DNA of 64,000 nt from Deltaproteobacteria bacterium (lineage in GTDB: Bacteria; Myxococcota; Kuafuiibacteriia; Kuafuiibacteriales; Kuafuiibacteriaceae), in the NCBI GenBank assembly GCA_040218735.1, contig JAVJQW010000057.1, forward strand, positions 1 to 64,000. Direction: 5' to 3'. The first letter of the stretch is position 1. Every line of letters starts with the position of its first letter. A program made the position numbers and the translations under genes. Positions 1,562 to 29,517 of this stretch are shown piece after piece. The notes beneath the pieces were generated by a model. It saw only the letters and a program-made list of their open reading frames with translations. It was not told where the DNA came from and ran no database searches.

Positions 1562-1564
1562 AAG

Positions 1565-6485: not shown

Positions 6486-6486
6486 T

Positions 6487-9780: not shown

Positions 9781-11142
9781 GTGACCATCGCATCTACCGC
9801 CTATGTCCACGAGATCCGCGCAACGGTCCCCTTCAACCTCTGGTGAAGACGGCCTGGCCCCGCTGCGTCGAGTTGTTCGAAGCCTCCGGAGGCACCGTCC
9901 CAAGGTTGTGACCGCCTTCGACAGCTACCTCAGGTGCGGCCTCGCTGAGGAAGGCGGCTCCATCCGCCTCGGGTGCACCCAGTGCGGCACTGAGCGTGCA
10001 CTTCCGTTGTCCTGCAAGCGCCGAGGAATCTGTCCGAGCTGCGGCGCTCGCCGCATTCACGACCTCGCGCAACCTCTGGTCGAGCGCGTCCTCCCCGACG
10101 TCCCGATTCGTCAGTACGTCCTGTCACCGCCCTCCGAGCTCGTGGGCCTTCTCGGCGCTCGAACCGAGCCCTTGTCCGCGCTCGCGCGCATCTTCATGCG
10201 CTGCATGTTCGATGCGATCGGGCGGCGCGTCGATGTGGGCGTTCCCGCGCACCCCGGTGCAGTCGTCGTGGTGCAGAGATTCTCCAAGACGCTCGCGCTC
10301 TTTCCTCACCTTCACGTGCTCGCATTGGACGGAGCGCACGTCGAGGTCGGCGACGAGCTCGAGTTCCGCGTCGATCCCGGCCCCACGCCCGACGACCTCC
10401 TCGACCTCAAAGACGAGGTGGAGCGTCGATTCTCGCGATGGCTCGAACAGCATGGCTATCTCGAGGAGGACGACCAGGACGAGGAGGCCCTCGACGGCTG
10501 GTTCGGCCCCGCGGCCTACGACACCGTTCAAGGACACCGCCCGCCCGGAAAGCCGCGCGACCCCTTCCGCTTTCAAGTGCACGCCACAGTTCGCGTGCCG
10601 GCGGGTGATCGCCCGGGACGAAAACGACTCTGCACCTACGTCGCACGCCCACCTCTGGCGGAGGCTGAGATCGAGCACCTCGATGAAGACCGAGTCCGCC
10701 TCTGGCTCCGCAATCCGGGTCGAAGTCCCGCCAGCAGCGTCGTCTTCACCTCGATGCAGCTCATTCGCCGCCTCGCCTGGCGGTTCCGCCCCCCAACCTC
10801 CACCTCGTCCGCTACGCCGGCATCCTCGCCCCCGCGGCTCGACTCCGTCATCGCGTCGTACCTGCGGGACGGGTCGGCATCCAGGCCGCATGGTTCGGCG
10901 AGAGGAAGTTCGAGCCACTCGTTCCCGTCCCATCCCAAACCGCCTGGGCCAGGCTGCTGGCGAAGGTCTACGAGATCCACGCTCACCAGTGCCCCAGATG
11001 CCAATCTTCGATGCGCCCCATCGCCACGGTCCTTCCACCATAGGCCCATGCCTGGATCGAACAGGGACGGATCCTGCCCATGCCCTCGACCGGACCACCG
11101 GCCCTCCTGAGCCGCCAACTCGACCTGCCGCTCGTTGCGTGA
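9781..11142 (+). pseudogene. IS91/ISCR-family rolling-circle (HUH/Y2) transposase with several frameshifts and an internal stop
   Basis: YLRCG, CTQCG, SCKRRGICPSCG zinc domain, QYVLS.P, PHLHVL (HUH), YVARPP; HLVRYAG after a frameshift near 10783; TAG at 11041; ends QLDLPLVA*. Confidence 0.88.
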
Positions 11143-11328
11143 TCCCAAACGGCCCCCGCACCCAATCCTCAACGCGTCGTCGCGTTCATGGATACGTGCG
11201 TTCAGAGCCGTTCAACTCGTCCCCCGCCACCGCAAAGACGGCCTCCGACCGAGCCGGGCGCGACACGCAATCGGTCGGGATCCATGCCGACCGAGGGCGT
11301 GCCGCTCCCCACGAGTCCCAGAGGCAGC

Positions 11329-11357
11329 AGCGGAATTGCGCTTAGATGTCCTATCCC
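11329..11357 (+). repeat. oriIS-like terminus of the IS91/ISCR element (copies end at about 3406 and 5026 on the minus strand)
   Basis: GCGGAATTGCGCTTAGATGTCCTATCC; homology among the three copies stops just after CCTAT(T/C)C. Confidence 0.7.
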
Positions 11358-11358
11358 G

Positions 11359-11586
11359 CAAGAGAAGCGCCGGGTCGCGATTCACGAGTCGGGGCACGCG
11401 CTCGTTGCGATGTCCGTCGAAAACGCCGACCCGGTGCACCGCGTGTCGATCATCCCGCGGTCGATCGGCGCGCTCGGCGTCACGCTGCAGCTCCCCACGG
11501 AGGAGCGCTACCTGACGCTCAAACAGGAGCTCCTCGATCGCATCTGCGTGATGATCGGCGGACGCGCGGCCGAAGAGCTGGTGCTC
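11359..11586 (+). pseudogene. ftsH: Internal fragment of the FtsH protease (M41) domain
   Basis: EKRRVAIHESGHALV...DPVHRVSIIPRSIGALGVTLQLPTEERYL...GGRAAEELV; no start codon and no AAA domain. Confidence 0.85.
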
Positions 11587-11650
11587 CCGCTCCTATCCCG
11601 CGCTCGCAAGTTGTCGCATCCTACTCGACGATCGGCGTAAAATACGACGT

Positions 11651-13621
11651 ATGCGCGAATATCTGATGGCGGCTGTCTGGGTGCTGCTTCTGCAGAATCT
11701 GGCATGCGAAAGAGCTCCTACTGCAACCACCGCCAATGAGCGAGTCCTCCTGAAGATCTGCGCGGTGGCAAAAGTTAAGGCGGTTGAACGTCATCTCCTC
11801 CGTCGAGCATGGGCGTCACCGGTCGAGTTGCGGGAGGCGATAGCGAGGTCGGCGGAGGTGGCAACCGATGTTGCCGCCGAGGCCTGCTCCGGTGAACGAG
11901 TGATCGTTAAGTACCCCGGCGTGAACGAGGCCGTTGTTGCGGTTGCGACAGATAGGGAGAGGCAGCTGTGGCGGGCAGATGAGGACGTGGCCAAGCAGCT
12001 AGCGGTGTTTTTTGAACTTTCCTTTCGTGAATCGCTGCAACTCATGTCGGAGACAGGAAGTACGCTCGTATTGTCGACGATCAGGGGGTGTGCGCTGCAT
12101 AGCGATTCTGAGACCGGCGTCTCGGCGGCAGCAGCGCTTGTATGGGGCTTAACGCCGACTGATTCCATTTCAAACCCATTTTTCCAGACGGACTCACTCA
12201 GAAGTTCGATCGGGAGTCCCGATATGGAGTCGCTCGCTTCTGGGGGTCTCCCTCTGGGAGGATGTCGCGGAGCCTGGCGGGACGGCGATGACAACGGAGG
12301 ATTAGCCAAGAGAAACGAGGACTTGAAAGCTCAGCTATTGAACAATGACAACGAAACACTCGCGAACTGCCTTTCCGCGTGGGCCAATAGCCAAGTCGAC
12401 TGCGGCGTCTTGAAGGACACCAACTCCGATACGAGTATCGACGAGAGCACCGAGGAGGACGAATCTAGTCAATCGACCGCCGATCCGAGTGCATATTCGA
12501 GGCACGACGAGGCACTAGGCGACTTCTTTGCCGCAGTCGCAGAACTTAACTCGGCGCAAGACGGACTATACGATGCTGAGAGGGTGGAGAATGCGTTGAC
12601 GACCCTCTATGGAGACCTATCGACTGTTGTGGACAACATCGGCAATAGCGGAACCGAGGTGTCGGAGATTCACTTGACGGGGACCGTTGTGGAAGTTGGG
12701 TTCTCTCAGAATGCCTCGGTGGAGGTCGGAACAGGTGGCATCAACGCATCCGGAGGGGCTGAGGTCTCTGGTTCCGTTGAGCGATCGGAGCCAACAGTTG
12801 TAATGTCGGTCAAGAGCCCGTTCGAGCGCGTTAAGGAGGGCCTAGAGGCGGTCCGACTATATCAGGATAAGGCGCAGGAACTCGCTGCGGCGGCGTCACG
12901 CACAGCCAGTGCCCAGGAGAGGTATCTACGAGCACACGATGCCTATGCTAGAGCACTCGATCGAGCCATTGCGCTTGATCCGTCGCTGTCTGACCCGCTA
13001 AGTCCCGATGGCCCAGAGATTGAGCGTCAACTCTGTCCGATGATGAATGTCGCAGGTGGGCGGATGCCTCTCCTCGGCTCATCCGTCGGTGAGGCAATGG
13101 CCAGTGAGGATCAGTTTCATGCCTGCATCTGCTTGCACCGGCCATCGATGGATCCAAGTTGTTCCAAGGCAGACCGAGAGAAGGCTCGATGTCTACACAA
13201 CCCTAGTGGACCTGATGACGGCCCCGACCCCAAGTGCTTCCGATGGCTTGCGAAAGCCCCGAGGCCACCAAAGAAGGACTACTGCGCTCTTGCGCGGTGT
13301 CCGCCGGGAACAACGCTACTGTCTACCTACGATTCGGCAACAGGTGCTCCTGAGGACTGCGGGTGTTTTACCTACGAGGGAGCCGCTGCGGTGATGGGTT
13401 CCAGCAATTGCTGCAGTCTAACGAACTGTGGCCCTGGAGGCCTGTGTGTGAACGTTGGTATGAGTTGCACCTGCAGAGGGTTGGCAACTGGAACTGGCCT
13501 CATGATTCCAAAGAACGATCTGCGACCACGCTTGCCGGGCGCGCTGATTACTCCGCCAAAGCGCCGTCCTAACGGCCTTGAGGATCTTGATCCGGCCTTT
13601 AGAATGAGGGGGGTGAAGTAG
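11651..13621 (+). CDS. 656-aa probable lipoprotein of unknown function with coiled coils and a Cys-rich C-terminus
   Basis: Hydrophobic N-terminus with lipobox-like NLAC; long ORF with visibly lower GC than the core. Confidence 0.75.
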   Translation: MREYLMAAVWVLLLQNLACERAPTATTANERVLLKICAVAKVKAVERHLLRRAWASPVELREAIARSAEVATDVAAEACSGERVIVKYPGVNEAVVAVATDRERQLWRADEDVAKQLAVFFELSFRESLQLMSETGSTLVLSTIRGCALHSDSETGVSAAAALVWGLTPTDSISNPFFQTDSLRSSIGSPDMESLASGGLPLGGCRGAWRDGDDNGGLAKRNEDLKAQLLNNDNETLANCLSAWANSQVDCGVLKDTNSDTSIDESTEEDESSQSTADPSAYSRHDEALGDFFAAVAELNSAQDGLYDAERVENALTTLYGDLSTVVDNIGNSGTEVSEIHLTGTVVEVGFSQNASVEVGTGGINASGGAEVSGSVERSEPTVVMSVKSPFERVKEGLEAVRLYQDKAQELAAAASRTASAQERYLRAHDAYARALDRAIALDPSLSDPLSPDGPEIERQLCPMMNVAGGRMPLLGSSVGEAMASEDQFHACICLHRPSMDPSCSKADREKARCLHNPSGPDDGPDPKCFRWLAKAPRPPKKDYCALARCPPGTTLLSTYDSATGAPEDCGCFTYEGAAAVMGSSNCCSLTNCGPGGLCVNVGMSCTCRGLATGTGLMIPKNDLRPRLPGALITPPKRRPNGLEDLDPAFRMRGVK

Positions 13622-13685
13622 CTCTTCTGTACGCACTCGCCCTGGCACCCCTGACGCCTCCTGGCTCGTCATGTAGCCGCGCGGG

Positions 13686-13994
13686 ATGACCAACAAGACA
13701 CCGAGACCACGACGTTCCTGGCCAAAGGCGGAGAAGGCGCGCATCGCGCAGCTCGTCCGCCGCCGTCGCGCCGCGGGCGCACGCTTTCGAGAACTCGTCG
13801 ACGAGCTCGGCATCCAGGAGGGCTCGCTTCGACTTTGGCTGAAGCAGTACCCAGAGGCCGCACTGCAGCCGGTGGAGATCGTCGAGGAGCCCCTTCCGAT
13901 CGACCGGCCCATCGCCTTGGTGACTCCGGACGGCTTTCGCTTCGAAGGCATCGAGCTGGCGATCGCCGTTCGCCTCTGGGAGCGTCTTCGTTGA
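13686..13994 (+). CDS. tnpA: IS66 TnpA
   Basis: RRSW...EKARI HTH, ELGIQEGSLRLW, LVTPDGFRFEG. Confidence 0.8.
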   Translation: MTNKTPRPRRSWPKAEKARIAQLVRRRRAAGARFRELVDELGIQEGSLRLWLKQYPEAALQPVEIVEEPLPIDRPIALVTPDGFRFEGIELAIAVRLWERLR

Positions 13995-14377
13995 TCTCGC
14001 TCGGCCGCGGGGGTCGCGTGTTCGCGGCCGCAACGCCGACCGACATGCGCAAGGGCTTCGACTCGCTCGCGCGCATCGTCGAGGAGCAGCTCGGGCGCGA
14101 TCCGCTTTCCGGCGATCTGTTCCTCTTCATCAACAGCCGGCGGAATCGAGCGAAGGTGCTGCTGTGGGACGGCACCGGGCTGGCCATCTACATGAAGCGC
14201 CTGGAGAAGGGTCGCTTCGCCGCGCCCTGGGCGCGCGCCCGCGAGGGCGTGATCACGATGTCGGCGGCAGAGCTCGGACTGTTCCTCGAAGGCAGCCAGC
14301 TCGTGTTCGTGGGTCGCCTCTCGCCGAACGCGATCGAACCGCAGAGAGTCGCAACACGCGATCTTCACGCACGATAG
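13991..14377 (+). CDS. tnpB: IS66 TnpB
   Basis: PTDMRKGFDSL...GDLFLFINSRR..AKVLLWDGTGLAIYMKRLEKGRF; TTG start overlapping the tnpA stop. Confidence 0.92.
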   Translation: MISLGRGGRVFAAATPTDMRKGFDSLARIVEEQLGRDPLSGDLFLFINSRRNRAKVLLWDGTGLAIYMKRLEKGRFAAPWARAREGVITMSAAELGLFLEGSQLVFVGRLSPNAIEPQRVATRDLHAR

Positions 14378-14380
14378 TGC

Positions 14381-15877
14381 GTGATCGACCTCGACCGCGT
14401 CTCCGACGTCGAGCTTCTTCGACAAGTCGCCATGCTGCAGGACGCCGAGATTCGCCGCCTGCACAACGCCATCACGCGCATGACGAGGTAGCTCGCCGAG
14501 ACGAGCGGCACGCCTGACGAAGAACTCCGTCAGCAGATCCTCGCCCTGCAGTCGCAGCTCGAAGAAGCGTACCGCCGGACGTATGGCGGCGGCAGTGAGC
14601 GACGCCCGAAGACCGAGGACGAACCGGAGCCGGAGAAGAAGGCCCAGAGCGGCCACGGCCCGACGCCGCAACCTGAGTTGCCGATCGAGGAAGTCGAGCT
14701 CGAGGTCGACGAGGCGGACCGCGCTTGCCCGACGTGCGGCTTGGAGATGGCGGACTGGGACGGTCACCACGACGAGAGCGAAGAGATCGACGTCGTGCAG
14801 CTTCAGTACGTTCTGACGAAGGTAAAGCGGAAGAAGTGCAAGTGCTCGGCGTGCGGGCACATCGAGACGGCGATCGGGTTGGCGAAGGTCGTCCCCGGCG
14901 GTCGGTACAGCCTCGACTTCGCAGTCCACGTGGCCATCGAGAAGTACGCCGATCATCTGCCGCTCGACCGCCAAGTCCGCCGTATGAAGCGGGCGGGACT
15001 CATCACGACGACGCAAACGCTGTGGGATCAGATCCTGTCGTTGTCGCACTGCTTCTCCGACGCGCTCGAGCGTTTGCATGCGCACTTGCTCACGCGTGAT
15101 GTGGTGCTGGTAGACGAGACTCGCTGGCCCTTGCTCGGCGTGAAAGGCCGCAAGACGAAGAACTGGTTTGTGTGGTCGCTGGTCGCGGACCATGGCGTGA
15201 TCTACCGAATCCAGGACAGCCGCTCGAATGAGGCGGGCAAGGCACTTCTCCGCGACTTCTCGGGCGTGGCGGTCGCGGATGGGTACGTGGTCTACGAGTC
15301 GCTCGCGAGGCAGAACGGGTTCACGTTGGCGAACGATTGGTGCCACGTCCGTCGAAAACTCATCGAGGCCGAGGGCTCCAGTCCCGAGATCGCCGGTGAG
15401 TTGCTCGATGAGATCGGGGCGCTCTTCAAGATCGAGCGTGAGGTCGACGAGCGCGTGGAGGGGCTTGCGGCCGAGGATGCGCGTCGACTCCGGGAGCAAG
15501 TCCGCGACGAGCAGTCCCGCGAGGTCTTGAATCGCATCGGTGCGATCGCGGGTAGCGTGAAGGCGCTCCGCGAGAGCCCGATCGCCAAGGCGGTGCAGTA
15601 TCTCGACAATCGGTGGGAGGGCCTGAACGCCTTCCTGGCCGACGGTCGCGTGCCCATCACGTCGAACGGGGTGGAGCGCGCCCTCCGTGGGCCGGTGCTT
15701 GGACGCGTGAACCACTACGGCTCGAAGTCGCAGCGCGGCACCGAGGTCGCGGCCGTCTTCTACACCCTCATCGAGTCCGCGAACGCCAACGGCGTGGAGC
15801 CTGCGGCCTACCTCAGAGCCGGAGCTCTGGCGTATGGCCGTGGCGAGACGGTGCCGCTGCCGCACGAGATCGCGTAA
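14381..15877 (+). pseudogene. tnpC: IS66 transposase TnpC with an in-frame TAG at 14489-14491
   Basis: CPTCG zinc finger, KYADHLPL.RQ, VDET, VADGY, WCHVRRK, SNGVERALR. Confidence 0.88.
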
Positions 15878-15937
15878 AACGACCAGGATCACAGGACCGA
15901 GCGCCCGAGGTCAGGGGTGCCAGGGCGAGTCCGTACG

Positions 15938-16003
15938 CTGGACTAGCCGACCGGTGCACCGCCTGGGCACTATCTGGTCACCGAGGCGGACAAGCGTTCG
16001 TAA
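15938..16003 (+). pseudogene. C-terminal tail of a probable tyrosine integrase, cut off at the IS66 end
   Basis: LD*PTGAPPGHYLVTEADKRS* is collinear with the tail at 22981-23046, with the same 24-bp spacing to the att core. Confidence 0.55.
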
Positions 16004-16027
16004 ACGCTCGCAATCGCTAGCAGAAAA

Positions 16028-16050
16028 ACTCCGGAAGAGGGACTTGAACC
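16028..16050. repeat. att core: 23-bp exact copy of the tRNA-Asn 3' end
   Basis: ACTCCGGAAGAGGGACTTGAACC, identical to 23071-23093. Confidence 0.92.
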
Positions 16051-16182
16051 ACCCTGGCGAGGAAATGAGAATCACCATGCATCGCGCACTCTTGGGATTC
16101 AATGCCTCGCTATTTCGAACACTTGCGACGTCGGATTGGTTCCGAGTCGCACCGCTTCGTTCTCGTCTCAATCCGCGCGGTC

Positions 16183-16200
16183 TGGTCACTATTTGGTCAC
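16183..16200. promoter_or_regulatory. Candidate integrase arm-type binding site (copies at 15964-15981 and 23007-23024)
   Basis: TGG(T/G)CACTAT(T/C)TGGTCAC occurs three times near the att cores; the two left-hand copies end the same distance (47 bp) before their cores. Confidence 0.65.
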
Positions 16201-16446
16201 TGAGGAACGCTGCGTGCGTGAGTTCTGACCCCGGGCCGGAATCGGCCAGCGCGGGTAGTCTCGTGACTACCTTGTGGGGTTGACAGCTACGAGCAGAAGC
16301 ACGGAGCCCAAAGCCCCCACATTAGAGGCACTTCGACTCACAAGGCGGCAACCAACCTCGCGGAGGCGTTAATAGGATTGATCCAAATGAAACACTGCCG
16401 GTAGACTCACGCCGCACTCTACCTGACGAGTGCGGGGGGGGAATCG

Positions 16447-19400
16447 ATGTCGGTACTGCTTCGGGTCGCTTCGCTGGCGGCCGTTCTCGCGCCTTCGACG
16501 GTCTTCGCTCAGGCGCTGCAAGTCACGCCGGGCGACGGTGCGTACATCGTCGGCGACGACTACGTCACGCTCGAGATCTCCGTCGTTGGTCTCGACCCGT
16601 CGGCGTCGGTCGTCGACATGTACGCGACACTCGACGGTCAGACCTGTCACGAGGACTTCATTCAGTGCATCGGCGGGATGAGCGTACTGACGTCAGGACA
16701 GTCCACCTTCGCCTGCTTCTTCCACGCCTCCTATCTCGGCGTCGGAACCCACATGAAGTTCGTCAGTCTGCAACTCAGCGACGGCAGCTGGATCTCGGAC
16801 TCTCTCGTTTGGCACGTGGTGCAGGGCGGTGGCTGCCAGCCCACGCCGGAGCTCTGCGACGGAGTCGACAACGATTGTAATGGCGTCGTAGATGATGGGC
16901 CTCCGCCCGACGCTATGACTTGGTATCCCGACGTGGACGGCGATGGGTTCGGTGATGTCTCGGGCGCCGTGAGCGCTTGTGCTGCGCCCGCCGGCTATAC
17001 GGATGTCGTCGGCGATTGCGACGACGCAGTCCCATCGATAAACCCGGCCGCGGTCGAGATTTGTGACAACGTCGACAATGACTGTTCGAACGGGATCGAC
17101 GACGGCGTGCTCAACTGCGTCGGTGGTCAGCCGGTGCCGGCCGACCCGAGCCCGTTCGCCACCGCACGGGGGGGGAGCGCGGTGCAGCCCCTCGGTGAGG
17201 GCGTACAGTTCCTCTACTCAGGGCCCGACGCCGTTCAGATCGGCGCGACTCCGGGAGCGATCGATCCCGCGCAGGCGGCAGTGCTCCGGGGCCGCGTCCA
17301 GCTCGCCGATGGGAGCCCGGCGCCGCTGGTATCGGTCACCGTCGTGGGCCAACCCGAGTACGGCAGCACCCTCAGCAGAATCGACGGACAGTACGATCTC
17401 GTCGTCAACGGAGGCCGCGACATCGTACTGGACTTCACGGCGCCCGGCTACCTGCCGGTACAGCGCCGGATCCGCACGTCGCGACAGGAGTATGCGCTCC
17501 CGCCCGACGTCGTGATGACGGCCCTCGACCCGATCGTGACCCCGATCGACCTGTCGAGCACGCAGCCGTTCCAGGTTGCACAGGGTTCACAGGTCGTCGA
17601 TGCCGACGGCGCAAGACGCGGCACGATCCTCTTCCCTCAGGGACTTTCGGCGACCATGGTCATGCCCGACGGCTCGACCCAGGGGCTGAGCTCGATGAAC
17701 GTGCGCGTCACTGAGTACACCGTCGGAGATCTCGGCCAGGCGGCCATGCCTGGGAACCTCCCGGCGACCAGCGCCTATACCTACGCGGTGGAGCTGAGTG
17801 TCGACGAGGCGATGGCCGCGGGCGCGACATCGGTCGATTTCAGCCAGCCGATCCCGTACTACGTGGACAACTTCCTCTCCATTCCGACTGGCGAGAGTGT
17901 GCCGCTCGGATACTACGATCGGATCCGATCGATGTGGGTCGGTTCACCGAGTGGCCTCGTCATCGACGTGCTGTCCGTCGCCGGTGGTGTGGCGCAGCTC
18001 GATATCGATGGTTCGGGCGTGGCCGCGGATAGCGTTAGCCTGGGCGCGCTCGGGATTTCGACCGATGAGCTGACTACGATCGCATCTCTCTTTGCCGCCG
18101 GGAGCTCGTTTTGGCGAGTTCCGATACCGCATTTCACGCCCTTTGACTGCAACTGGCCGTACAACCTCCCGCTGGGAGCGGTCGTACCCAGCCCGCGCGT
18201 GGCAGCTGCGGCCCTCCGGCGCATTGCGTGCAGCAGCGTCGAGAACGGAGACGGAACTCAGCTCGAGAACCAGGTGCTGGGTGAAGAGCTCGATGTCACC
18301 GGGACGCCCTTCAAACTCCACTACGCGAGCGACCGCGCGCCGGGCTTCGACGTCCACCGTATCGTGCCCGTCGAGCTCTACGAGGGGGCGCCGCCGCCGA
18401 ACGTCGATCGAGTCGACGTGGAACTCCGGATCGCCGGGCGGAGCATCCGGACGTCGAGTCCCCCCGTTCCGGACGCTTCCGTGACCCTGACGTGGGACGG
18501 CGTGGACGCCTACGGTCGCACGATTCAAGGGCTCTTCCCCGGCCGCGTTCGCGTCGGGCACGTCTATACACCGGTCTACGCGGGCGAGGGTGTGGGCTTC
18601 GGTTCGTTCGCCGCGTCCCTCATCGGCTTCAATCCGCTGCGTTTCGAGCTGTTGGTCTGGGACGAGCGGGAGGTCGAGCTGGGAGGCTTCGATGCGAGGT
18701 CGATCGGGTTGGCAGGGTGGTCGCTCAGCCACCATCACGTCTACGATCCCATCAGCCGAACGCTCTACCGAGGAGACGGGAAGATTCAGAACGGCGAAGA
18801 GGTACCGTTCATCGTTCGCCGCCACGCCAACACCCCCCTTACGGGCCTCGTGCTGATCTATGGGTTTGCGATCGATAGCCTGGGCCGACTGTACTTCTCC
18901 AACAACTCCGTGAACGTCTCTCGAATCGGCCTTTCGGGCCAAATCGAACGGGTCGCGGGCAACGGGACAATCGGCTTCAGCGGCGATGGAGGGCCGGCCG
19001 ACCAAGCGCAGCTGTCGGTTCCTCGCGGTATTGCGATCGATCGCAATGACATGCTGTACATCGCGGATAGTCGGAACAACCGAATTCGGCGCGTCGACCT
19101 CTCGACCGGGATCATCTCGACCTTCGCCGGGAACGGCGTGGGTGCGTTCGCGGGTGACGGGGGTCCCGCGTTGTCGGCGAGTATTCGCAATCCGATCGGT
19201 CTCGCGATCGATAGTCAGGATGCCCTGTACGTGAGCACCGGCATCTTCTCCCGGCGTGTCCGCCGGATTCGGCCGGACGGTGACATCGAGACCTACGCGG
19301 GCAGCGGAAGTCAATGGTTCCTCGGTTTTACCGGCGACGGTCAGCTCGCCACCGCGGGGCGTCTGTGCGCGCCGGAAGGAATTGCCTTCGACCAGAACGA

Positions 19401-22400
19401 CAACCTGTACATCGCGGACGCCGGATGCGCCTCGATTCGGCGCGTTCGACCGGACGGAATCATCGAGATGGTCGTCCGCAATGAGATCAGGCAAGGAACC
19501 GGCGTCGTCGCCGTCGATGATCACGGTGTCCTCTACTTCAGCGACGGCAACCAGATTCAGCGCATGAACCTCATCGGGAGGCCGGAGGTCGTCGCTGGTG
19601 ATTTCTTCACGGGGCTCACGGGGGATGGTGGTCCCGCGACCGCCGCACGATTTCAGAGCATTCGGGCCATGCACATCGACGACGGCCGGAATATCTTCGT
19701 TGCGACGGGGATCAATGGGCAAGTCATTCGTCGTCTGACGCCCCCGTTCCCGGGGTATGACTCTCAGGGCATCTTCGTTGCATCCGCCGCCGGTGACGAG
19801 CTCTATCAGTTCGACCCCTCCGGCCGCCACCTGGCCACGATTCACCCACTGACGGGTTCGAGTCTGCTGTCGTTTGCCTACGACCCGAGCGGTCGCCTCG
19901 CGAGTGTTACCGACTCCGTCGGGAACGTTACGACGATCTCTCGGGCGGGTGGCATGGTCGATATCGACGCTCCCCCCGGGCTCCGCACGAGTCTCGTGGA
20001 GGACAGCAACGGTTTCCTGAGCTCCTTCATGAACCCCGACGGCGATGTGACGACGATGGCTCATTCATCCTCGGGGCTTCTCAGCTCGATGACCAAACCT
20101 CAGGGCGGGACGACACAGTATACCTACGACGCTGCGGGCCGGCTCCTCGGAGAAACGGACGAAACGGGAGTCACCCTCGGCCTGTCGCGAGTCGAAACAT
20201 CCACCTCGATGAGCGTTGCGCGGACCACGGGCCTCGGTCGTCAGACGTCCTATCGAGTTCTACAAGACGATGCTTCGTCCCGGATCCGCGAGGTCGTGCA
20301 TCCGAACGGAACGCGGAGCGTAGGCGTGGGCTATTCGAGTGGGGAGAGGACCCTGACGTTGCCGACCGGTACCGTGATCGAGCGCGCGACGAGCAGCGAT
20401 CCGCGATTCGGAATGGTGGCGCCCGTGCACACGATGCGAACGGTTACCCAGCCGAGCGGTCTCGCGAACAATGAGCTGGTCTCGAGAACCACGACGCTTC
20501 AGGACCCATCGGACCTCCTGAGTGTGACGTCGGTGGTCGACACCGTCGATCGCAACGGTCGCGTCTACACGATGACGTTCGACGGGGCGGCGAGATCCCT
20601 CACGACTGTCACGCCAGCCGGTCGTTCGTCGACGCGAGTCCTGGATTCTCTCGGGCGTATCGTGAGTATGATCTCACCGGGATTTCAGTCGGTGGACGTC
20701 AACTACGATACCTTCGGTCGGCCCACTCGGATCACTCGCGGTAGTGGTGCGACGGCGCGGCAGTATGATATCGTCTACGACTCGTCGGGTTTCGTGCAGA
20801 GTGTGACGGACCCGGGAGGCAATACTGCCGCCTTTTCCAGAGACGGTGCGGGTCGCGTACTCGTACTCACGATGCCGGACGGCCGCACCTCCAGCATGAC
20901 CTACGACGGCGACGGTAACATCTCGAGTGTCGTCTCACCCTCGGGCGCGGCGCATTCTTTTGCCTATGACGGCTCGGGCCGAGAGGTTGGTTATTCACCC
21001 GCGGCCGTCGGCGGACCCGCGACGAGCGTACTCACTCAGTACGACGCCGACGGGATGCTCGCGCGAGTCGTTCGGCAGGACGGCGTCCGCGTCGACTTCC
21101 TTCGCAATGCGGTTTCCGGTCGCATCGACCGGGTCAGCGTGCCCGTCGGCGACTTCGTGTACGCGTACGATCCGGTTTCGGGTCTGCTGAGTGGCGCCGT
21201 GTCACCGTACAACGTCGCCATCGCACGCACCTACGATGGTTTCCTGCACACGGATTCACTTTGGAGCGGCTCCGTATCGGGTCTCGTGTCTCGAACCTAC
21301 GACGCCGACTTCTCCGTGAGCTCGGAGTCGGTGAACGGCGCCGCCGTCGCGCGAACGTACGACGCCGACAAACTCCTGACCGGCGTTGGATCGTTGACGA
21401 TCTCCAGGGACGCAGTGACAGGTGGCGTGACCGGGACATCTCTGGGACTTGTTGCGACGTCGAGGGCGGAGAATGGATTTGGTGAGGTTCAGTCGGAGAC
21501 GTTCTTGTTCAACGGCTCGCCCTTCTTCTCGATGACCTACGCCAGCCGTGATGCGTTGGGCCGGTTGACCGCGCGGACGGAGGACATCCTCGGTGCGACC
21601 TCGACCGATGAGTACTTCTACGACTCGTCGGCGCGACTCTCCGAGGTCTGGAGGAATGGCGCGCTCGTGCGTTCGTACACGTACGACGTCAACGGCAACC
21701 GAGCGGGAACCGTGGTGGACGCCCGCGATCGCCTCATGCAGGACGCAACGTATAGCTACGTCTACGACGAGCACGGCGAATTGATCAGTCGTACGGACCT
21801 CCTGTCGGGCGCCGTCACATCCTTCGAGCGGGATGCCCTGGGCAACCTCCTCGCTGTACATCTCCCGGACGCAACGACGATCGAGTACCTGGTCGATGCC
21901 CACGACCGCCGGGTCGCGCGACTGGTCGGCGGGATCTTCGACGTCGGGTGGCTCTACGACGGCCGGCGGTCGCTCATCGCGAGCATCGACGTGAACGGAA
22001 ACGTGATCAGCCGATTCGTCTACGGAGAAGACGTAAACTCTCCGGAGTACATGGTGCAGGGCACCAGCACGTATCGCCTCGTGAAGGACCATCTCGGCTC
22101 GGTTCGACTTGTTGTCGACGTCGCAACCGGCATCGTTGCTCAGCGACTCGACTACGACGAGTTTGGCGTCGTCCTGACGGATACGCAGCCTGGCTTCCAG
22201 CCGTTCGGATTCGCGGGCGGCCTGTACGACGCGAGCACGGGCCTCGTACGCTTCGGGGCTCGCGACTACGACGCGCACTCCGGGCGTTGGATCTCGCGAG
22301 ATCCGATCCGGTTCCGCGGGCGTGACTTCAACCTCTACCGATATGCCGGGGGCGATCCGGTCAACTACACGGATCCATCAGGCCTCGTATGCGGGAGCGG

Positions 22401-22746
22401 CGTCACGGACTGCTGGGTGCCCGACTATCCGTTCGGCTTCGACTTCACGAAGGCCTGTGAGGCGCATGATGCCTGCTACGGCACGCTCGGTGCGTCTCGG
22501 GTGGGCTGCGACCTTCGGATGTTCGCGGATGTAGTCACCACGGCTTGTCTGGAGCAGTCACCAGCTGACATGGCGGGCTGTGTCGCGACCGCCCAGGCCT
22601 ATTTTGGTGCGGTTCGGCTGTTTGGCGCTTTGCCGTTTAGGTGGGCGCAAGAGGAGGCGGAAGAGCGTCAACGCTGCGGCGCGCCCGAGCACGAGTCCGA
22701 CCAGGAACCCTGCGGCATAGATCGATACTGGACGCCGAGCCAGTAG
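16447..22746 (+). CDS. Teneurin-like YD/Rhs protein (signal peptide, ExCDGxDNDC metal-binding repeats, NHL propeller, YD shell, Rhs core) with a C-terminal phospholipase A2-like domain
   Basis: ELCDGVDNDCNG repeats; GDGGPA NHL repeats; YD repeats; DHLGSVR, FGARDYD, DPVNYTDPSGL; tip CGSG...VPD...FTKACEAHDACY...CD. Confidence 0.92.
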   Translation: MSVLLRVASLAAVLAPSTVFAQALQVTPGDGAYIVGDDYVTLEISVVGLDPSASVVDMYATLDGQTCHEDFIQCIGGMSVLTSGQSTFACFFHASYLGVGTHMKFVSLQLSDGSWISDSLVWHVVQGGGCQPTPELCDGVDNDCNGVVDDGPPPDAMTWYPDVDGDGFGDVSGAVSACAAPAGYTDVVGDCDDAVPSINPAAVEICDNVDNDCSNGIDDGVLNCVGGQPVPADPSPFATARGGSAVQPLGEGVQFLYSGPDAVQIGATPGAIDPAQAAVLRGRVQLADGSPAPLVSVTVVGQPEYGSTLSRIDGQYDLVVNGGRDIVLDFTAPGYLPVQRRIRTSRQEYALPPDVVMTALDPIVTPIDLSSTQPFQVAQGSQVVDADGARRGTILFPQGLSATMVMPDGSTQGLSSMNVRVTEYTVGDLGQAAMPGNLPATSAYTYAVELSVDEAMAAGATSVDFSQPIPYYVDNFLSIPTGESVPLGYYDRIRSMWVGSPSGLVIDVLSVAGGVAQLDIDGSGVAADSVSLGALGISTDELTTIASLFAAGSSFWRVPIPHFTPFDCNWPYNLPLGAVVPSPRVAAAALRRIACSSVENGDGTQLENQVLGEELDVTGTPFKLHYASDRAPGFDVHRIVPVELYEGAPPPNVDRVDVELRIAGRSIRTSSPPVPDASVTLTWDGVDAYGRTIQGLFPGRVRVGHVYTPVYAGEGVGFGSFAASLIGFNPLRFELLVWDEREVELGGFDARSIGLAGWSLSHHHVYDPISRTLYRGDGKIQNGEEVPFIVRRHANTPLTGLVLIYGFAIDSLGRLYFSNNSVNVSRIGLSGQIERVAGNGTIGFSGDGGPADQAQLSVPRGIAIDRNDMLYIADSRNNRIRRVDLSTGIISTFAGNGVGAFAGDGGPALSASIRNPIGLAIDSQDALYVSTGIFSRRVRRIRPDGDIETYAGSGSQWFLGFTGDGQLATAGRLCAPEGIAFDQNDNLYIADAGCASIRRVRPDGIIEMVVRNEIRQGTGVVAVDDHGVLYFSDGNQIQRMNLIGRPEVVAGDFFTGLTGDGGPATAARFQSIRAMHIDDGRNIFVATGINGQVIRRLTPPFPGYDSQGIFVASAAGDELYQFDPSGRHLATIHPLTGSSLLSFAYDPSGRLASVTDSVGNVTTISRAGGMVDIDAPPGLRTSLVEDSNGFLSSFMNPDGDVTTMAHSSSGLLSSMTKPQGGTTQYTYDAAGRLLGETDETGVTLGLSRVETSTSMSVARTTGLGRQTSYRVLQDDASSRIREVVHPNGTRSVGVGYSSGERTLTLPTGTVIERATSSDPRFGMVAPVHTMRTVTQPSGLANNELVSRTTTLQDPSDLLSVTSVVDTVDRNGRVYTMTFDGAARSLTTVTPAGRSSTRVLDSLGRIVSMISPGFQSVDVNYDTFGRPTRITRGSGATARQYDIVYDSSGFVQSVTDPGGNTAAFSRDGAGRVLVLTMPDGRTSSMTYDGDGNISSVVSPSGAAHSFAYDGSGREVGYSPAAVGGPATSVLTQYDADGMLARVVRQDGVRVDFLRNAVSGRIDRVSVPVGDFVYAYDPVSGLLSGAVSPYNVAIARTYDGFLHTDSLWSGSVSGLVSRTYDADFSVSSESVNGAAVARTYDADKLLTGVGSLTISRDAVTGGVTGTSLGLVATSRAENGFGEVQSETFLFNGSPFFSMTYASRDALGRLTARTEDILGATSTDEYFYDSSARLSEVWRNGALVRSYTYDVNGNRAGTVVDARDRLMQDATYSYVYDEHGELISRTDLLSGAVTSFERDALGNLLAVHLPDATTIEYLVDAHDRRVARLVGGIFDVGWLYDGRRSLIASIDVNGNVISRFVYGEDVNSPEYMVQGTSTYRLVKDHLGSVRLVVDVATGIVAQRLDYDEFGVVLTDTQPGFQPFGFAGGLYDASTGLVRFGARDYDAHSGRWISRDPIRFRGRDFNLYRYAGGDPVNYTDPSGLVCGSGVTDCWVPDYPFGFDFTKACEAHDACYGTLGASRVGCDLRMFADVVTTACLEQSPADMAGCVATAQAYFGAVRLFGALPFRWAQEEAEERQRCGAPEHESDQEPCGIDRYWTPSQ

Positions 22747-22849
22747 GGAGGGCCGCGCTCGACATTTGTCCGAGGTACGCGCACCGAGCACGAGACCAAT
22801 AAGACGGAGGGCCTTGACCGAGCTTCCTTCTTCAACTTTCAACCGCCGG

Positions 22850-23046
22850 CGCGCTTCGATGTTCCGGTCGGCGCCCGCCCCCTCCGGGGACCTCCTCGAG
22901 CAGTCCGACTCCACTATACACAGATGCTCAGGTACAGGCGTCTACAGGACGTCGGTGAGAAACGCGACGCTGTGGCCGTGCTGTACAAGCTGACCGATGC
23001 GCCGCTTGGGCACTATTTGGTCACTGGAGTGGAGGCAGCTTCGTAA
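22850..23046 (+). pseudogene. Decayed C-terminal remnant of a probable tyrosine integrase
   Basis: DLLEQSDSTI then, after a frameshift, MLRYRRL...KRDAVAVL...GHYLVT; resembles the box II region and tail of phage integrases and reads toward the att core. Confidence 0.5.
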
Positions 23047-23071
23047 GATATCGAACTCGCTAAGGAAAAGA

Positions 23072-23144
23072 CTCCGGAAGAGGGACTTGAACCCCCGACC
23101 TAGTGGTTAACAGCCACCCGCTCTACCGACTGAGCTATTCCGGA
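23072..23144 (-). tRNA. tRNA-Asn (anticodon GTT), CCA not encoded
   Basis: TCCGGAA/TTCCGGA acceptor stem, AGCTCAGTCGGTAGAGC D-arm, CTGTTAA anticodon loop, GGTTCAAGTCC T-loop, discriminator G. Confidence 0.97.
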
Positions 23145-23273
23145 TCAGCCAGACACCAGGGCGCCCAGCGACCGCCGAGTCTAGCTTTCGCGCGGCTCGT
23201 GTCAAGACTCGATTCGCGCACTTCGTCCGACCATTCTTCCGCCCCAAGCGAGGGGGCGGGGCGGTAGGATGCG

Positions 23274-24299
23274 GTGATGCGACGGCGCCTCTCGACGCTG
23301 ATGCTCCTGCTCCTCGGGGCGACCGCCTGCGGTGATGAGCCGATGCGCGTGCCGCCGCCGCCGGCGGGGGCCGGGTCGATCATCATTCGGTGGTCTCTCG
23401 AGGACCCCGACGGGGTGGCGCTGAACTGCGCCGACCTGCAGATCGCCGAGGCCGAGGTGGCCATCGGCGGGACGCCGATCGTCGTGCCGTGCGGCGAGAC
23501 CGAAGAAGCCTCGTTCGAGAACGTCATCCCCGGGCGCATCCCCGTCGTCATCCGGCTCCTCAACTCCATCGGGCTCGAGTTCGACAGCCACATCGACAAC
23601 GCGATCGTCGAAGACCAGACGGAGCTCGAGTACACCCACGTCTTCGTCGTCGACGAAGAAGAGTTCCAACGCGGCACCCTCGACATCAACTGGCGCATCG
23701 ACACCCGCGTCCCCGCCCAGACCTGCGGGCTCATCGGCGCCACCACCATGCGCATCGCCACGCGCTCCGGGTCGATCTCCATGTTCGAGATGGACGCCGA
23801 CTGCGAAGCCGGCCAACTCATCATCCCCGACGTCCGCCGCGGCGGCTACGACTTCATCTTCTGGCTCGTCGCCGCCGACGGAACGCTGCTCGAACCGCCC
23901 GAGACGCGCACCTCCATCGGCGTGTTCGCCGGCGACACCACGCGCGTGAGCCTCAACTTCCGCACCGTCGATCCCCGACCGCGCACCGTGCTCACGCGCT
24001 GGACCGTCCAGACCTCGACCCCGACGGCGACCAACTGCTTCGACATCGGCGGCGAAGAAGTCCGCGTCACGCTCGAGACCCCCAACCCCCTCACGGGCCT
24101 CCTCGAGCTCACCGACACCGCCACGACCGCGTGCGCCTCCGGCTCCGCGACCGTCCGCGGCGAACAGACCGACGGCGCCCTCCTCACCGCACGCCTCGTC
24201 GACACCTTCGGCGGCACCCTCGTGCTTCGCAGCGTCGAAGACCTCGACCTGCGCGTCTCGAGCGCCACGGTCAGCGTCGACTTCACGCCCGAAGACTAA
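23274..24299 (+). CDS. Lipoprotein with three repeated beta-rich Cys-paired domains
   Basis: LLGATAC lipobox; three W...C...C units. Confidence 0.8.
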   Translation: MMRRRLSTLMLLLLGATACGDEPMRVPPPPAGAGSIIIRWSLEDPDGVALNCADLQIAEAEVAIGGTPIVVPCGETEEASFENVIPGRIPVVIRLLNSIGLEFDSHIDNAIVEDQTELEYTHVFVVDEEEFQRGTLDINWRIDTRVPAQTCGLIGATTMRIATRSGSISMFEMDADCEAGQLIIPDVRRGGYDFIFWLVAADGTLLEPPETRTSIGVFAGDTTRVSLNFRTVDPRPRTVLTRWTVQTSTPTATNCFDIGGEEVRVTLETPNPLTGLLELTDTATTACASGSATVRGEQTDGALLTARLVDTFGGTLVLRSVEDLDLRVSSATVSVDFTPED

Positions 24300-24314
24300 G
24301 GGCCCGCACGGGCC

Positions 24315-25475
24315 CTAAGACCCCGCCCGGCCCCGCGGCGGACGCTGCTTGAACAGCTCCGGATCCACACGCCGGCCGTCCAGCTTGATCTCGAAGTGCA
24401 GGTGCGGCCCCGTCGCCCGCCCGCTCTCCCCCGACAACATGATCACGTCACCCTTCGACACGTGATCTCCACGCCGCACCACCAGCTCGGATGCGTGGCA
24501 GTACGCGCTCGCCAATCCGTGGCCGTGATCGATCTTGATGAACTTCCCGTTCACCGAGTCCTCACCAGCGAACCGAATCACCCCGTCCGCCACCGCGCGA
24601 ATCTCGGTGCCCGTCCCCACCGCGAGGTCGGTGCCCGTGTGCAGCTTCTTCGTCCCGAGCACCGGGTGCGTGCGCCAGCCGAACGACGATGAGATCGGCG
24701 TCTTGAACGGCACCGGCCACTGCATCGAAAACGCCGTCACCAACGCAAACGTCCCGTTCACCAACGGGTCCGTCTCCAACGCGACGTCGCTCGGCAGGAA
24801 CCGCGAGAAGTCCTCGTACGCCGTCGGGTTCGCCGCCCCCGACGCCCGCGCGCGGTCGACCGCGTACGCCACCGCCGTGAGATCCACCGCCGTCGCCGCC
24901 ACGGCCGGCTCGAGCCCACCGAGCCGCTTCGACAGCTTCGCCACCGCGTCGAGCAACGCCTGCTCGCGCACCTTCGCCGGCGCGTCGGCGGCCGGCCACT
25001 CGATCCCCACCGCGAAGAACGAGCCGCGTCCGGACTCGAGCAGCTGCACGTCGTAGTGACGCCCTGCCCGCTTGCCGCCCGACAACATCATCACCAACGC
25101 CCGCGCCACGTCCGGCGGGACGCCGACCTTCTTCGCCTGGATGCTCACCGGCGCCCGCGGCTTCGGCGGCTTCACGATCTCCTCGAGCTGCGCGAGCGAG
25201 CTGTTCGACGACCCGCTGCCCGTGTCCGTGTCGAAGTAGCTGATCAGCGAACGTGTCTTCGCCTGTCGCCCGACGATCGCGTTGTAGCCGCGCTCGAGGA
25301 GCTGGCCGACCGGTGTCGCGATCACGAGCGCGTACGTCGCGAACACCACCGCGATCAGATCCAGGAACCCGCGGCGCGGTCCGCTCGGCTTGGACGGCGA
25401 CGGCGGCGGAGCACGCGGCGTCGAACGCTCCGCTTCGATCGAAGCGAGCAGGCGATCGAGATCTTCGCGACTCAC
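24315..25475 (-). CDS. Membrane-anchored M23 family metallopeptidase
   Basis: HTGTD and GPHLHFE zinc motifs, YCH; one TM helix; GTG start overlapping the upstream stop. Confidence 0.9.
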   Translation of the reverse strand: MSREDLDRLLASIEAERSTPRAPPPSPSKPSGPRRGFLDLIAVVFATYALVIATPVGQLLERGYNAIVGRQAKTRSLISYFDTDTGSGSSNSSLAQLEEIVKPPKPRAPVSIQAKKVGVPPDVARALVMMLSGGKRAGRHYDVQLLESGRGSFFAVGIEWPAADAPAKVREQALLDAVAKLSKRLGGLEPAVAATAVDLTAVAYAVDRARASGAANPTAYEDFSRFLPSDVALETDPLVNGTFALVTAFSMQWPVPFKTPISSSFGWRTHPVLGTKKLHTGTDLAVGTGTEIRAVADGVIRFAGEDSVNGKFIKIDHGHGLASAYCHASELVVRRGDHVSKGDVIMLSGESGRATGPHLHFEIKLDGRRVDPELFKQRPPRGRAGS

Positions 25476-26278
25476 GACAGCGGCCAGAGCGCGCGCAACG
25501 TCGCGACGATCGGTGTCGAGGCGAACACCGCGAAGAAGGTGATGGGGAGGATGACCAGCGCGGTCCACACGCCGCGCATCCGACGGTGACGCATCGGGAT
25601 GCTCGCCGCCCGATCCGCTTCGGCCCGGCGGTCCGCCCACGCCGCCGCCGACTTCACGACGTTCGTCGCGAGCCGCCACGTCACGAGCACCAGCGCGACG
25701 ATGCCGACCACCGCCGCGACGCGCCCCGCGCCGAGCGACAGATACGGGAGGCTCTTCACCGCCTCGTGCGTCCCGACCTGGACCTTCTGCGCCACGATCA
25801 CCACGCCCGAGATCGAGGCGAGCAGCGCCGCCAACGGCGCGACCAGACGCAGCACCGTGAAGTCGAGGTAGAGCTTCCGCAGGTTGTCGAGGATCGGCAC
25901 GTCGTCCGTGCGGTGCCGGAAGATCGGTATGGCGAAGATCAGATCCGCGCCCAGCTCGACGAGCAGCGCCGTCCACCGCGCCGCCCACGCCTTCACCTCC
26001 AGATCGATGAAGTCGATCGCCTTGAAGGTGTGCGCCGCGGTCGTGCTCACCGAGACGTCGAGCGCCCCGTACACGTTCTGGATCAGCCACGCGAGGAGGT
26101 CGTCGAGGCGCGCGTCGAAGAAGTTGAAGAGGACGAAGCTGAGATCGTCGACGCGGTCGCTCCCGGCGTGGATGCCGATCGCGACCACCGCGAACAGGCC
26201 GACCGGGAGGAAGAGGCCCCGGAAGAGCCCGAGCGTCATCGAGAGCCTACCGAGGAACGATGTCTTCGCTTCCGTCAT
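25472..26278 (-). CDS. Multi-pass membrane protein of unknown function
   Basis: Several hydrophobic segments; GC3-rich codons; coupled to the M23 gene. Confidence 0.75.
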   Translation of the reverse strand: MTEAKTSFLGRLSMTLGLFRGLFLPVGLFAVVAIGIHAGSDRVDDLSFVLFNFFDARLDDLLAWLIQNVYGALDVSVSTTAAHTFKAIDFIDLEVKAWAARWTALLVELGADLIFAIPIFRHRTDDVPILDNLRKLYLDFTVLRLVAPLAALLASISGVVIVAQKVQVGTHEAVKSLPYLSLGAGRVAAVVGIVALVLVTWRLATNVVKSAAAWADRRAEADRAASIPMRHRRMRGVWTALVILPITFFAVFASTPIVATLRALWPLS

Positions 26279-28183: not shown

Positions 28184-28263
28184 GCGATTCGAAGGCCAGC
28201 ATACCCCATCGGCCCCCCGGCCGATTGGCGCCGGTTCCCAGGTCATGGGCGTTATGGGGTGCC

Positions 28264-29517
28264 GTGCGCCTCCCCCTCGCCCTCGCCGCCGCCCTCGCCC
28301 TCGCCGCTTGCGGGAAAGCGCCGGTGGCCGGCCTCGGGGATCTGAACGGCGGCGCCACCCGCGACGCCGGCCCCGCCAGCACCCGCGATGGGGGCACCAC
28401 GACCCGCGACGCCGGACCGATCACGGTGCGCGACGGCGGCGACACCTTCGTCCCCGACAGCGGCCCCTTCCCCTACGACGGCGGGCCCGACTTCCCGCCC
28501 CCGCCCGACGGCGGCCCCGTCGACGCCCACTTCCGCGACGGCGGCGACACCCCGATCTTCGACGGCGGCACGCGCGACGGCGGCGTAGTGACGCCCCCGC
28601 GCGACGGCGGCGTAGTGACACCCCCGCGCGATGGCGGCGTCCCGAACACCCCGGACGCGGGCGTCGAGTGCACGTCGAACTCGGACTGCCAGGGCATCGG
28701 GCCCAACGACTTCTGCGACCTCGGCACGTTCACGTGCGTCGAGTGCCTCGTCGACAACCACTGCGGCTTCAACGAGGTCTGCGACACGCAGTACGGCCAC
28801 GTCTGCCGCAACGAGTGTTTCAACAACCAGTGCCCGCCCGGTCGTGTCTGCGACGTGGCCAACGACGTCTGTGTCGAGTGCCTGACCAGCGCGGACTGCG
28901 ACAACCTCGAGGTCTGCAGCCCGACCACGCGCGAGTGCGTGCAGTGCACGACCAACGCCGACTGTGCGCTCGTGCCCAACCGCCCATTCTGCGATCTCTC
29001 GGAGAGCGAGTGCGTCGGTTGCCTCAGCGACGCGGACTGCCCGACGGGCCAAGAGTGCTTCGAGTACCAGAACAACTTCTGCGCGACGGCGCAGAACCGG
29101 GCGATCTGCGAGCCGTGCATCGCCGACTCCGAGTGCGGCGGCGCCGACGACCTCTGCATCGGGTGGGTCAACAGCGGCGGCCTGATCGATCGCTCCTGCT
29201 CGCCGGGTTGCTCGAACAACAGCCAATGCCCGCGCGGTTGGGAGTGCGTGTCGGTGCGCCAGAACGACCAGGTGTGCCGCCCGCGCTACGACATGAGCCG
29301 CCCGACCTGCACGGCCGAACGCAACCTCGGCGAGGCGTGCAGCCCCGACCCGCAGGACGTCGACCCGGAGTGCGGCATCACCGGCCTCCAGGACGCGCGC
29401 TGCGTCGTCTCGGGCGCGACGGGTGCGGCGCAGTGTTCGTTCTGGTGCGACGACAACGACGACTGCCCGATCGGCCGGACGTGCACGAACGTGAACGGCA
29501 CGCAGTTCTGCCTGTGA
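28264..29517 (+). CDS. Cys-rich repeat lipoprotein with a DGG/Pro linker
   Basis: LALAAC lipobox; RDGG repeats; repeated CVECLxxxDC modules. Confidence 0.85.
   Translation: MRLPLALAAALALAACGKAPVAGLGDLNGGATRDAGPASTRDGGTTTRDAGPITVRDGGDTFVPDSGPFPYDGGPDFPPPPDGGPVDAHFRDGGDTPIFDGGTRDGGVVTPPRDGGVVTPPRDGGVPNTPDAGVECTSNSDCQGIGPNDFCDLGTFTCVECLVDNHCGFNEVCDTQYGHVCRNECFNNQCPPGRVCDVANDVCVECLTSADCDNLEVCSPTTRECVQCTTNADCALVPNRPFCDLSESECVGCLSDADCPTGQECFEYQNNFCATAQNRAICEPCIADSECGGADDLCIGWVNSGGLIDRSCSPGCSNNSQCPRGWECVSVRQNDQVCRPRYDMSRPTCTAERNLGEACSPDPQDVDPECGITGLQDARCVVSGATGAAQCSFWCDDNDDCPIGRTCTNVNGTQFCL
28571..28640 (+). repeat. 27-bp coding tandem repeat (about 2.6 copies; RDGGVVTPP)
   Basis: CGCGCGACGGCGGCGTAGTGAC(G/A)CCCC repeated directly. 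Confidence 0.85.

Follow-up and report, generated by a model that had tools for sequence, protein, structure and literature searches.

The 64,000-nucleotide stretch of Myxococcota DNA analyzed here (contig JAVJQW010000057.1; the window) carries, at the 3′ end of its tRNA-Asn gene, a decayed mobile island of a known kind and no new system. The island comprises a left unit crowded with insertion sequences (IS) and a right unit of 7,043 bp whose one real gene encodes a 2,099-aa Rhs/YD protein. We think it likely that a T-loop site in the tRNA-Asn gene received, in succession, two related tyrosine-integrase elements, and that the right unit is now an integrase-less remnant resembling a cis-mobilizable element (CIME). 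The observations behind this reading are a pair of exact tRNA-derived repeats, the geometry of further repeats around them, the gene content of the units and the absence of an integrase from the 64 kb.

Results

A displaced tRNA-Asn 3′ end delimits the right unit

ARAGORN identifies a single tRNA gene in the window, an intact tRNA-Asn(GTT) on the minus strand at 23072-23144 (Rfam tRNA, 70.9 bits). A promoter-like site lies by the gene on the minus strand (23205-23178), and Rfam reports no RNA family besides tRNA-Asn in positions 13000-24500. The 3′-terminal 22 nt of the gene together with one flanking base, read on the plus strand as the 23-mer ACTCCGGAAGAGGGACTTGAACC, occur exactly at 16028-16050 and 23071-23093, spaced 7,043 bp apart and both in tRNA orientation. 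We denote the minus-strand copy at the tRNA gene (23071-23093) as the proximal attachment (att) core and the displaced minus-strand fragment (16028-16050) as the distal core. The window holds no further copy at ≤3 mismatches (0 in 100 shuffles) and none at ≤7 mismatches. The sequence-only reading of this DNA had reported the exact 23-bp repeat at 16028 and 23071 and taken it for a tRNA 3′ end displaced in the manner of tyrosine integrases, and the type of fragment, its orientation and its position downstream of the tRNA fit that account; additional core copies further left, for which it had proposed a search, are absent from the window at ≤7 mismatches.

The distal core contains the discriminator, the 3′ strand of the acceptor stem, the 3′ half of the T-stem, the T-loop and 2 nt beyond. 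On the plus strand the distal copy reads A, CTCCGGAA, GAGGG, ACTTGAA and CCACC. The five bases past the core match the 5′ half of the T-stem at 4/5 positions (CCACC vs CCCCC in the tRNA), and similarity to tRNA-Asn is lost thereafter. Because identity breaks inside the 5′ half of the T-stem and then vanishes, we place the crossover in or beside the T-loop. The cores are identical at 23/23 positions vs 73.7% in the adjoining flank (p ~9e-4 under equal decay), which argues that core identity is due to site-specific recombination and not to an old duplication. We take the distal core to be an integration footprint. The parts of the Islander report that deal with tRNA sites (PMC4383910) give an intact tRNA gene with a displaced 3′ fragment in the same orientation as the signature of tyrosine-integrase islands, and also describe tandem arrays and crossover subsites in the T-stem region at tRNAs.

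Arm-like repeats lie on both sides of the distal core

The 18-mer GGKCACTATYTGGTCACY occurs three times in the window, at 15965, 16184 and 23008, always on the plus strand (0.11 expected), with no further copies at ≤5 mismatches. Each 18-mer is built of two TGGKCACY half-sites in direct orientation with 11-bp spacing, one turn of the helix. The copies at 15965 and 23008 begin 63 bp ahead of their cores, and the copy at 16184 begins 134 bp past the end of the distal core.

These copies mark three plus-strand arms. Arm A1 (15937-16027; 18-mer at 15965-15982) is the core-proximal flank of the left, presumably older unit, and arm A2 (22980-23070; 18-mer at 23008-23025) is the corresponding flank of the right unit. 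The two are homologous along their length, with 70/95 aligned columns identical (73.7%; blastn E 1.5e-18 with the core included). The right end of an IS66-family element abuts A1 and truncates its flank, and the homology of A1 to A2 begins at the first base after this element. Arm B is a 31-nt block beyond the distal core, inside the right unit (16175-16205; 18-mer at 16184-16201). It is 81% identical to 15956-15986 and 86% identical to 22999-23026, the latter with a 16-nt exact run, and its likeness to A1 and A2 is limited to these 31 nt. The arm block, GCRCSGYYTGGKCACTATYTGGTCACYGRRG, is thus present in three copies on the same strand, flanking core on both sides, and nowhere else in the 64 kb. 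A similarity search of the window with the unit flanks gave no other match, and 45 bp past arm B, where a core would be expected, there is no core-like sequence (≤7 mismatches).

Conservation is sharply restricted to the 18-mers within an otherwise 74%-identical flank, and the differences between copies sit at positions that also vary between half-sites. As in a lambda-type attP, a repeated arm motif stands on both sides of a core within ~250 bp. The lambda arm-site consensus, which we presume to resemble GGTCACTAT, did not turn up in a literature search with "arm-type", and no claim made here rests on it. The 18-mers are most likely arm-type binding sites of a lost integrase. The sequence-only reading had described the three copies with coordinates right to within one base (it placed the third at 16183), and its attP-like arm-core-arm layout at 16028 and its arm sites at both ends of the right unit are recovered here as A1-core-B and as B and A2, respectively. 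The equal arm-core distance that it had stressed is indeed 63 bp at both cores, but follows from the longer homologous flank in which both 18-mers sit, and so is not an independent coincidence.

A single Rhs gene with a phospholipase-like tip fills the right unit

The right, presumably younger unit spans 16051-23093, a period of 7,043 bp. Its one real gene, encoding the Rhs/YD protein (16447-22746, plus strand), occupies 89% of the unit, is intact over 2,099 codons and leaves non-coding flanks of 396 bp upstream and 324 bp downstream. Antisense open reading frames (ORFs) within the gene match no Pfam family. The protein begins with a signal-peptide-like (Sec) sequence, and Pfam recognizes RHS_repeat (3e-37), TEN_YD-shell, TEN_NHL, TTR_TEN1-4, FN-plug and MopE-type Cys motifs. 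The NCBIfam model Rhs_assc_core matches residues 1903-1980, ending …DPSGL, and is followed by a C-terminal tip of ~119 aa (residues about 1981-2099) that carries the motif CEAHDACY and resembles secreted phospholipase A2 (PLA2). The tip matches Pfam Phospholip_A2_3 (PF09056) at E 6.8e-5, below that family's curated cutoff, and four of its five matches among PDB sequences are PLA2 chains (8k1w_A, 1.7e-6; 1faz_A, 3.4e-5; 7ygk_A, 5.6e-5; 4aup_A, 0.11). YD repeats and an RHS-associated core followed by a C-terminal toxin-like domain are the arrangement of Rhs/YD polymorphic toxins, and we predict a secreted, teneurin-like Rhs/YD shell with a PLA2-like toxin tip.

The nearest non-self relative of the Rhs protein is 44% identical. 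The family is large: of 8,000 scored candidates, 4,308 proteins reach E≤1e-10. The protein's own 90% cluster has four member sequences on three contigs. A word-based search for the PLA2-like tip on other Rhs-sized proteins found none, its own cluster alone passing among 1,591 candidates.

The sole ORF in the 324 bp downstream of the Rhs gene encodes 75 aa (22766-22993), belongs to no family and has a G+C content at third codon positions (GC3) of 0.71. The 28 frames of ≥25 aa in the unit flanks, scanned with Pfam at E≤5, yielded no immunity- or excisionase-like family and no integrase remnant; the two matches obtained (E 0.33 and 0.052) are both to unrelated families. The earlier description of the right unit as a single gene whose integrase is gone is thus upheld by Pfam, NCBIfam and the flank frames.

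GC3 is 0.77 in the Rhs gene, 0.57-0.61 in the left-unit cargo (radical SAM, methyltransferase and a 656-aa Cys-rich protein) and 0.86-0.94 in nine of the ten genes right of the tRNA. By this contrast, a further argument for integration at the tRNA, each unit stands apart from the chromosome and also from the other unit, and the Rhs cargo looks foreign to the chromosome.

Searches for an integrase

Pfam Phage_integrase matches none of the 39 ORFs of ≥110 aa in 1-32 kb, none of the 46 ORFs of ≥200 aa in 32-64 kb and none of the 95 stop-to-stop frames of ≥80 aa scanned in 1-16050 (95/97; the other two are the methyltransferase and radical SAM genes, covered by the ORF scan of 1-32 kb). It is likewise missing from the 28 frames in the two non-coding flanks of the right unit, even at E≤5. 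Both units appear to have lost their integrases.

We also followed frames through the arms and core. The sequence-only reading had pointed to an integrase ending in GHYLVT, the peptide that the 18-mers encode in one frame, and three protein searches (the 60-aa frame, the flank frames and the 74-aa frame) lend it no support. The 60-aa frame (22864-23043), compared with longer proteins, had 298 word-sharing candidates with none at E≤10, which is a weak test since a match of 15-20 aa could not reach the cutoff. A 99-aa frame has no match in NCBIfam or PHROGs. The 74-aa frame that runs through the core (16004-16225) gave two weak matches among 1.84 billion representatives (E 5.8e-5 and 3.6e-4), one a repetitive DUF11/LPXTG surface protein and the other a protein without a Pfam family, and an Mx8-like integrase ORF across the core was accordingly rejected.

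The left unit is a stack of transposable elements

The IS66-family element next to A1 lies on the plus strand at 13629-15936, with TnpB at 13835-14377 and the transposase at 14678-15877 (NCBIfam IS66_TnpB, 7.1e-30; transpos_IS66, 3.1e-87). Its terminal inverted repeats of 27 nt (13629-13655 and 15910-15936) are 96% identical. The 8-bp flanks, GCTCTTCT and GCTGGACT, agree at just 5/8 positions, so there is no clean target duplication; the mismatch suggests an adjacent deletion or rearrangement after insertion.

Genes and fragments of transposable elements are stacked up across the rest of the DNA to the left of 16028 and include an IS3-like helix-turn-helix protein. On the minus strand we find an rve-domain transposase (6294-8075) beside a TniB-like AAA_22 ATPase (5686-6486), an ISL3-like zinc-ribbon fragment (7883-8515) and a second IS66 TnpB (8776-9225). 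On the plus strand an IS91/ISCR-like Y2 transposase (9785-11107) is directly followed by a fragment of an FtsH protease gene that retains the M41 domain only (11143-11637) and has the appearance of a gene piece picked up in rolling-circle transposition. The left unit comprises >16 kb of IS elements and mixed genes, and no effector was recognized among its cargo. The window contains no left core for this unit at ≤7 mismatches. The tandem array proposed by the sequence-only reading therefore stands as two cores, one internal junction and the tRNA, with the left unit unbounded in the window.

Other features of the left region deserve mention. A low-GC pair at 782-2605 (GC3 0.57-0.61) consists of a radical SAM/SPASM maturase-like gene and a methyltransferase gene with a weak daptide-type match, and may be the remnant of a cluster for a ribosomally synthesized and post-translationally modified peptide inside the left island. 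A non-coding segment of ~270 bp is duplicated at 3400-3670 and 5020-5290 (71-81% identical) around a gene resembling those for sigma factors of the extracytoplasmic function type (ECF-sigma-like; 3840-4397, plus strand), and part of it, with a GGATCC-centered palindrome, recurs at 11273-11308. The 656-aa ORF at 11651-13621 (G+C 57.8%) has a Cys-rich C-terminal third, ends 8 bp before the left end of the IS66 element and has no family in Pfam, NCBIfam or PHROGs.

The chromosomal side of the tRNA

The G+C content of the window is ~68-70%. Just right of the tRNA, an M23 peptidase gene (24315-26090) has a GC3 of 0.75 vs 0.86-0.94 in the other nine right-flank genes, and on this value the genes immediately to the right of the tRNA may be untypical of the core genome. 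An ORF at 28225-29517, 5 kb from the tRNA, combines a Myxo_Cys_RPT repeat with weak similarity to TraA, the receptor for outer-membrane exchange. This ORF, the G+C content and the closest tRNA-Asn matches in other genomes all place the organism in Myxococcota.

Related sequences in other collections

The combined arm-plus-core pattern had no match in the collection genome_contigs, which lacks the present genome. The 22-mer core occurs there at five loci, all plain tRNA-Asn genes, the closest in Myxococcota metagenome-assembled genomes. At one of them (L001) we found no real synteny with the window, and the flank downstream of its tRNA is unlike arm A. The phage collection gave no match and the plasmid collection gave a tRNA match only. 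At another locus (L003, positions 4100-5078, from an unrelated low-GC Myxococcota genome), a ~459-bp tandem repeat precedes the tRNA-Asn gene and includes a diverged partial tRNA copy with the same 22-mer; there is no cargo between the copies.

Discussion

Two successive integrations would account for the locus

In the order of events that we favor, a first element would have integrated at tRNA-Asn and a second, related one, which recognized the same core and had an arm 74% identical to that of the first, would then have integrated into the restored tRNA-Asn. Each insertion would restore the tRNA from its own attP and displace the previous 3′ end outward, the product being A1-core-B … Rhs … A2-core-tRNA. 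The older left unit would end at A1 and the core at 16028, and the younger unit would span from arm B to A2 and the core within the tRNA. Both integrases would have been lost later; on the left, IS66 and neighboring IS activity are the likely cause. The right unit would thereby have shrunk to the Rhs gene between att flanks of roughly 250-330 bp. Recombination between the exact cores would yield a 7,043-bp circle with A2-core-B, a full attP of ~240 bp, and would leave A1-core-tRNA behind. Such excision would need an integrase, and probably also an excisionase or directionality factor, from a related element; the unit would be a CIME-like passenger, moved in trans or in cis by an element integrating alongside. 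The order of events, the function of the arm sites and any present-day mobility are what we infer from the arrangement.

Several points weigh against this interpretation. With no left core for the left unit in the window, the claim of two units comes from a single internal junction. The class of the recombinase and the role proposed for the arm sites are deduced from geometry, the 64 kb containing no cognate integrase. In frame, each of the three 18-mers encodes GHYLVT, and none of the three differences among them changes a residue, as would also be true of coding remnants. None of the five loci that share the 22-mer core carries the 18-mer, so no relative shows the arm motif. Finally, units are recognizable only if both cores survive, so intact att flanks around a lone gene reflect ascertainment and are no evidence of selection for mobility.

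The in-frame peptide is at the heart of one alternative, which takes the 18-mers for relics of three decayed copies of an integrase or other island gene, namely their 3′ coding ends (…GHYLVT…stop), and arm B for a third, nearly deleted unit. Besides the peptide and the synonymous differences, each copy runs into a stop within 6-8 codons, A1 and A2 share TTCGTAA, and TAG in A1 vs AAG in A2 fits a decaying pseudogene. Outside the hexapeptide, however, 9 of the ~13 codon differences between A1 and A2 alter the residue. The frames belong to no protein family in Pfam, NCBIfam or PHROGs, the 60-aa end found none of its 298 candidates at E≤10 (the weak test noted above), and neither of the two weak matches of the 74-aa frame among the 1.84 billion representatives is an integrase. 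A third unit should also have left a core 45 bp after arm B, where there is none, and a likeness to A1 and A2 longer than the 31 nt seen. We regard this alternative as unlikely and clearly favor arm sites over coding remnants. An account without site-specific integration, in which an old local duplication arose downstream of the tRNA and the Rhs gene landed later by other means, can appeal to the duplicated stretch being short (~118-127 nt) and diverged; it meets a fragment that ends precisely in the T-arm, a core identical at 23/23 positions vs a flank at 73.7% (p ~9e-4), an arm block that recurs beyond the core, and an orientation and 3′-end nature that are those expected of att sites in the relevant parts of PMC4383910. 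We give it hardly any credence.

The sequence-only reading had gone furthest in the other direction, seeing a working non-autonomous cassette that is excised, circularized and stacked in trans, an integron-like way of collecting effectors at a tRNA. Both cores are exact, the unit carries an arm block at each end (A2 and B sharing 16 nt without a mismatch), the Rhs ORF is intact over its 2,099 codons, and apart from short flanks the unit consists of one gene. Yet only one cassette is delimited, the left unit extends over >16 kb of IS elements and mixed cargo in which no effector was recognized, the window has no integrase, the motif appears in no second genome among those searched, and ascertainment explains the intact ends. 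With a single cassette and no effector on the left, effector collecting finds no footing, and because passive CIMEs and tandem accretion are already published the locus does not qualify as the undescribed system for which it was nominated. We judge a working cassette improbable, a little more so than coding remnants. Rather doubtful still is the specific version in which the unit of 7,043 bp lives on as a minimal passenger with a complete split attP, and tRNA-Asn cassettes in Myxococcota are swapped or stacked by the integrases of related elements. If this were true, it would constitute a tRNA-based shuffling system for single toxin genes in the phylum.

Under the interpretation that we prefer, two successive integrations followed by decay, the locus as it stands is a clean, well-delimited case of island decay at a tRNA. 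For annotation, it sets the island boundary, flags the foreign Rhs-PLA2 gene and places the IS66 insertion. Should the unit still be mobilizable, a very large single toxin gene could travel between myxobacteria with ~700 bp of att DNA as its sole other content.

Comparison with known systems

The Rhs protein shares with Rhs/YD polymorphic toxins and bacterial teneurin-like proteins the YD shell, NHL propeller, TTR and FN-plug domains, the RHS core ending …DPSGL and the variable toxin tip at the C terminus. It differs in having no recognizable downstream immunity gene and no PAAR/VgrG context, and in bearing a Sec signal peptide instead.

The myxophage Mx8 uses the 3′ end of a tRNA gene as its integration site. 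Its integrase gene extends across attP, as stated in the portion of PMC4383910 that mentions the phage. The present locus has in common with Mx8 a myxobacterial host and coding-looking sequence on both sides of the core; unlike in Mx8, the frame through the core is closed by TAA nine codons upstream in A1 and A2, and no integrase turned up among the relatives of the open 74-aa frame across the core.

Integron cassettes, too, consist of one promoter-distal gene between recombination sites and are, in principle, stackable by an integrase encoded elsewhere. Here, in contrast, there is no IntI, attI or attC hairpin (Pfam finds no integrase and Rfam the tRNA only), the site is a tRNA fragment with arm repeats, and there is one cassette of 7 kb vs ~1 kb.

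In architecture the locus matches the tRNA islands catalogued by Islander, as outlined in PMC4383910. An intact tRNA gene (tDNA) and a same-orientation 3′ fragment of it lie on one replicon, the crossover maps to the T-stem/T-loop, the arrangement is in tandem, the length of 7,043 bp lies within 2-200 kb, and no Pfam domain covers the region of the distal fragment (15937-16446). The difference is that neither unit has an integrase ORF, none being found within the unit ORFs or the flank frames, and the right unit consequently fails the Islander integrase filter.

That difference leads to the CIMEs, which descend from an integrative and conjugative element (ICE) or an integrative and mobilizable element (IME) and can be excised or transferred along with a related incoming element. 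Together with tandem accretion at one att site, they are defined in PMC5704250 and PMC6323972 on the model of Streptococcus thermophilus ICESt1 and ICESt3. The right unit departs from that model in its myxobacterial host, in being cut down to one 6.3-kb Rhs toxin gene, and in being known from sequence alone, with no parental ICE, IME or prophage known here. The two agree in several respects. With identical cores and arm blocks inside both ends, the unit keeps attL and attR in its sequence; it has no integration or transfer genes between them, Rhs being its sole gene; and it shares the 3′ end of one tRNA with another unit in a tandem arrangement, the two being separated by a chimeric internal att site, A1-core-B. 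If the unit can still be mobilized, it would extend the CIME concept from streptococci to a predatory soil phylum.

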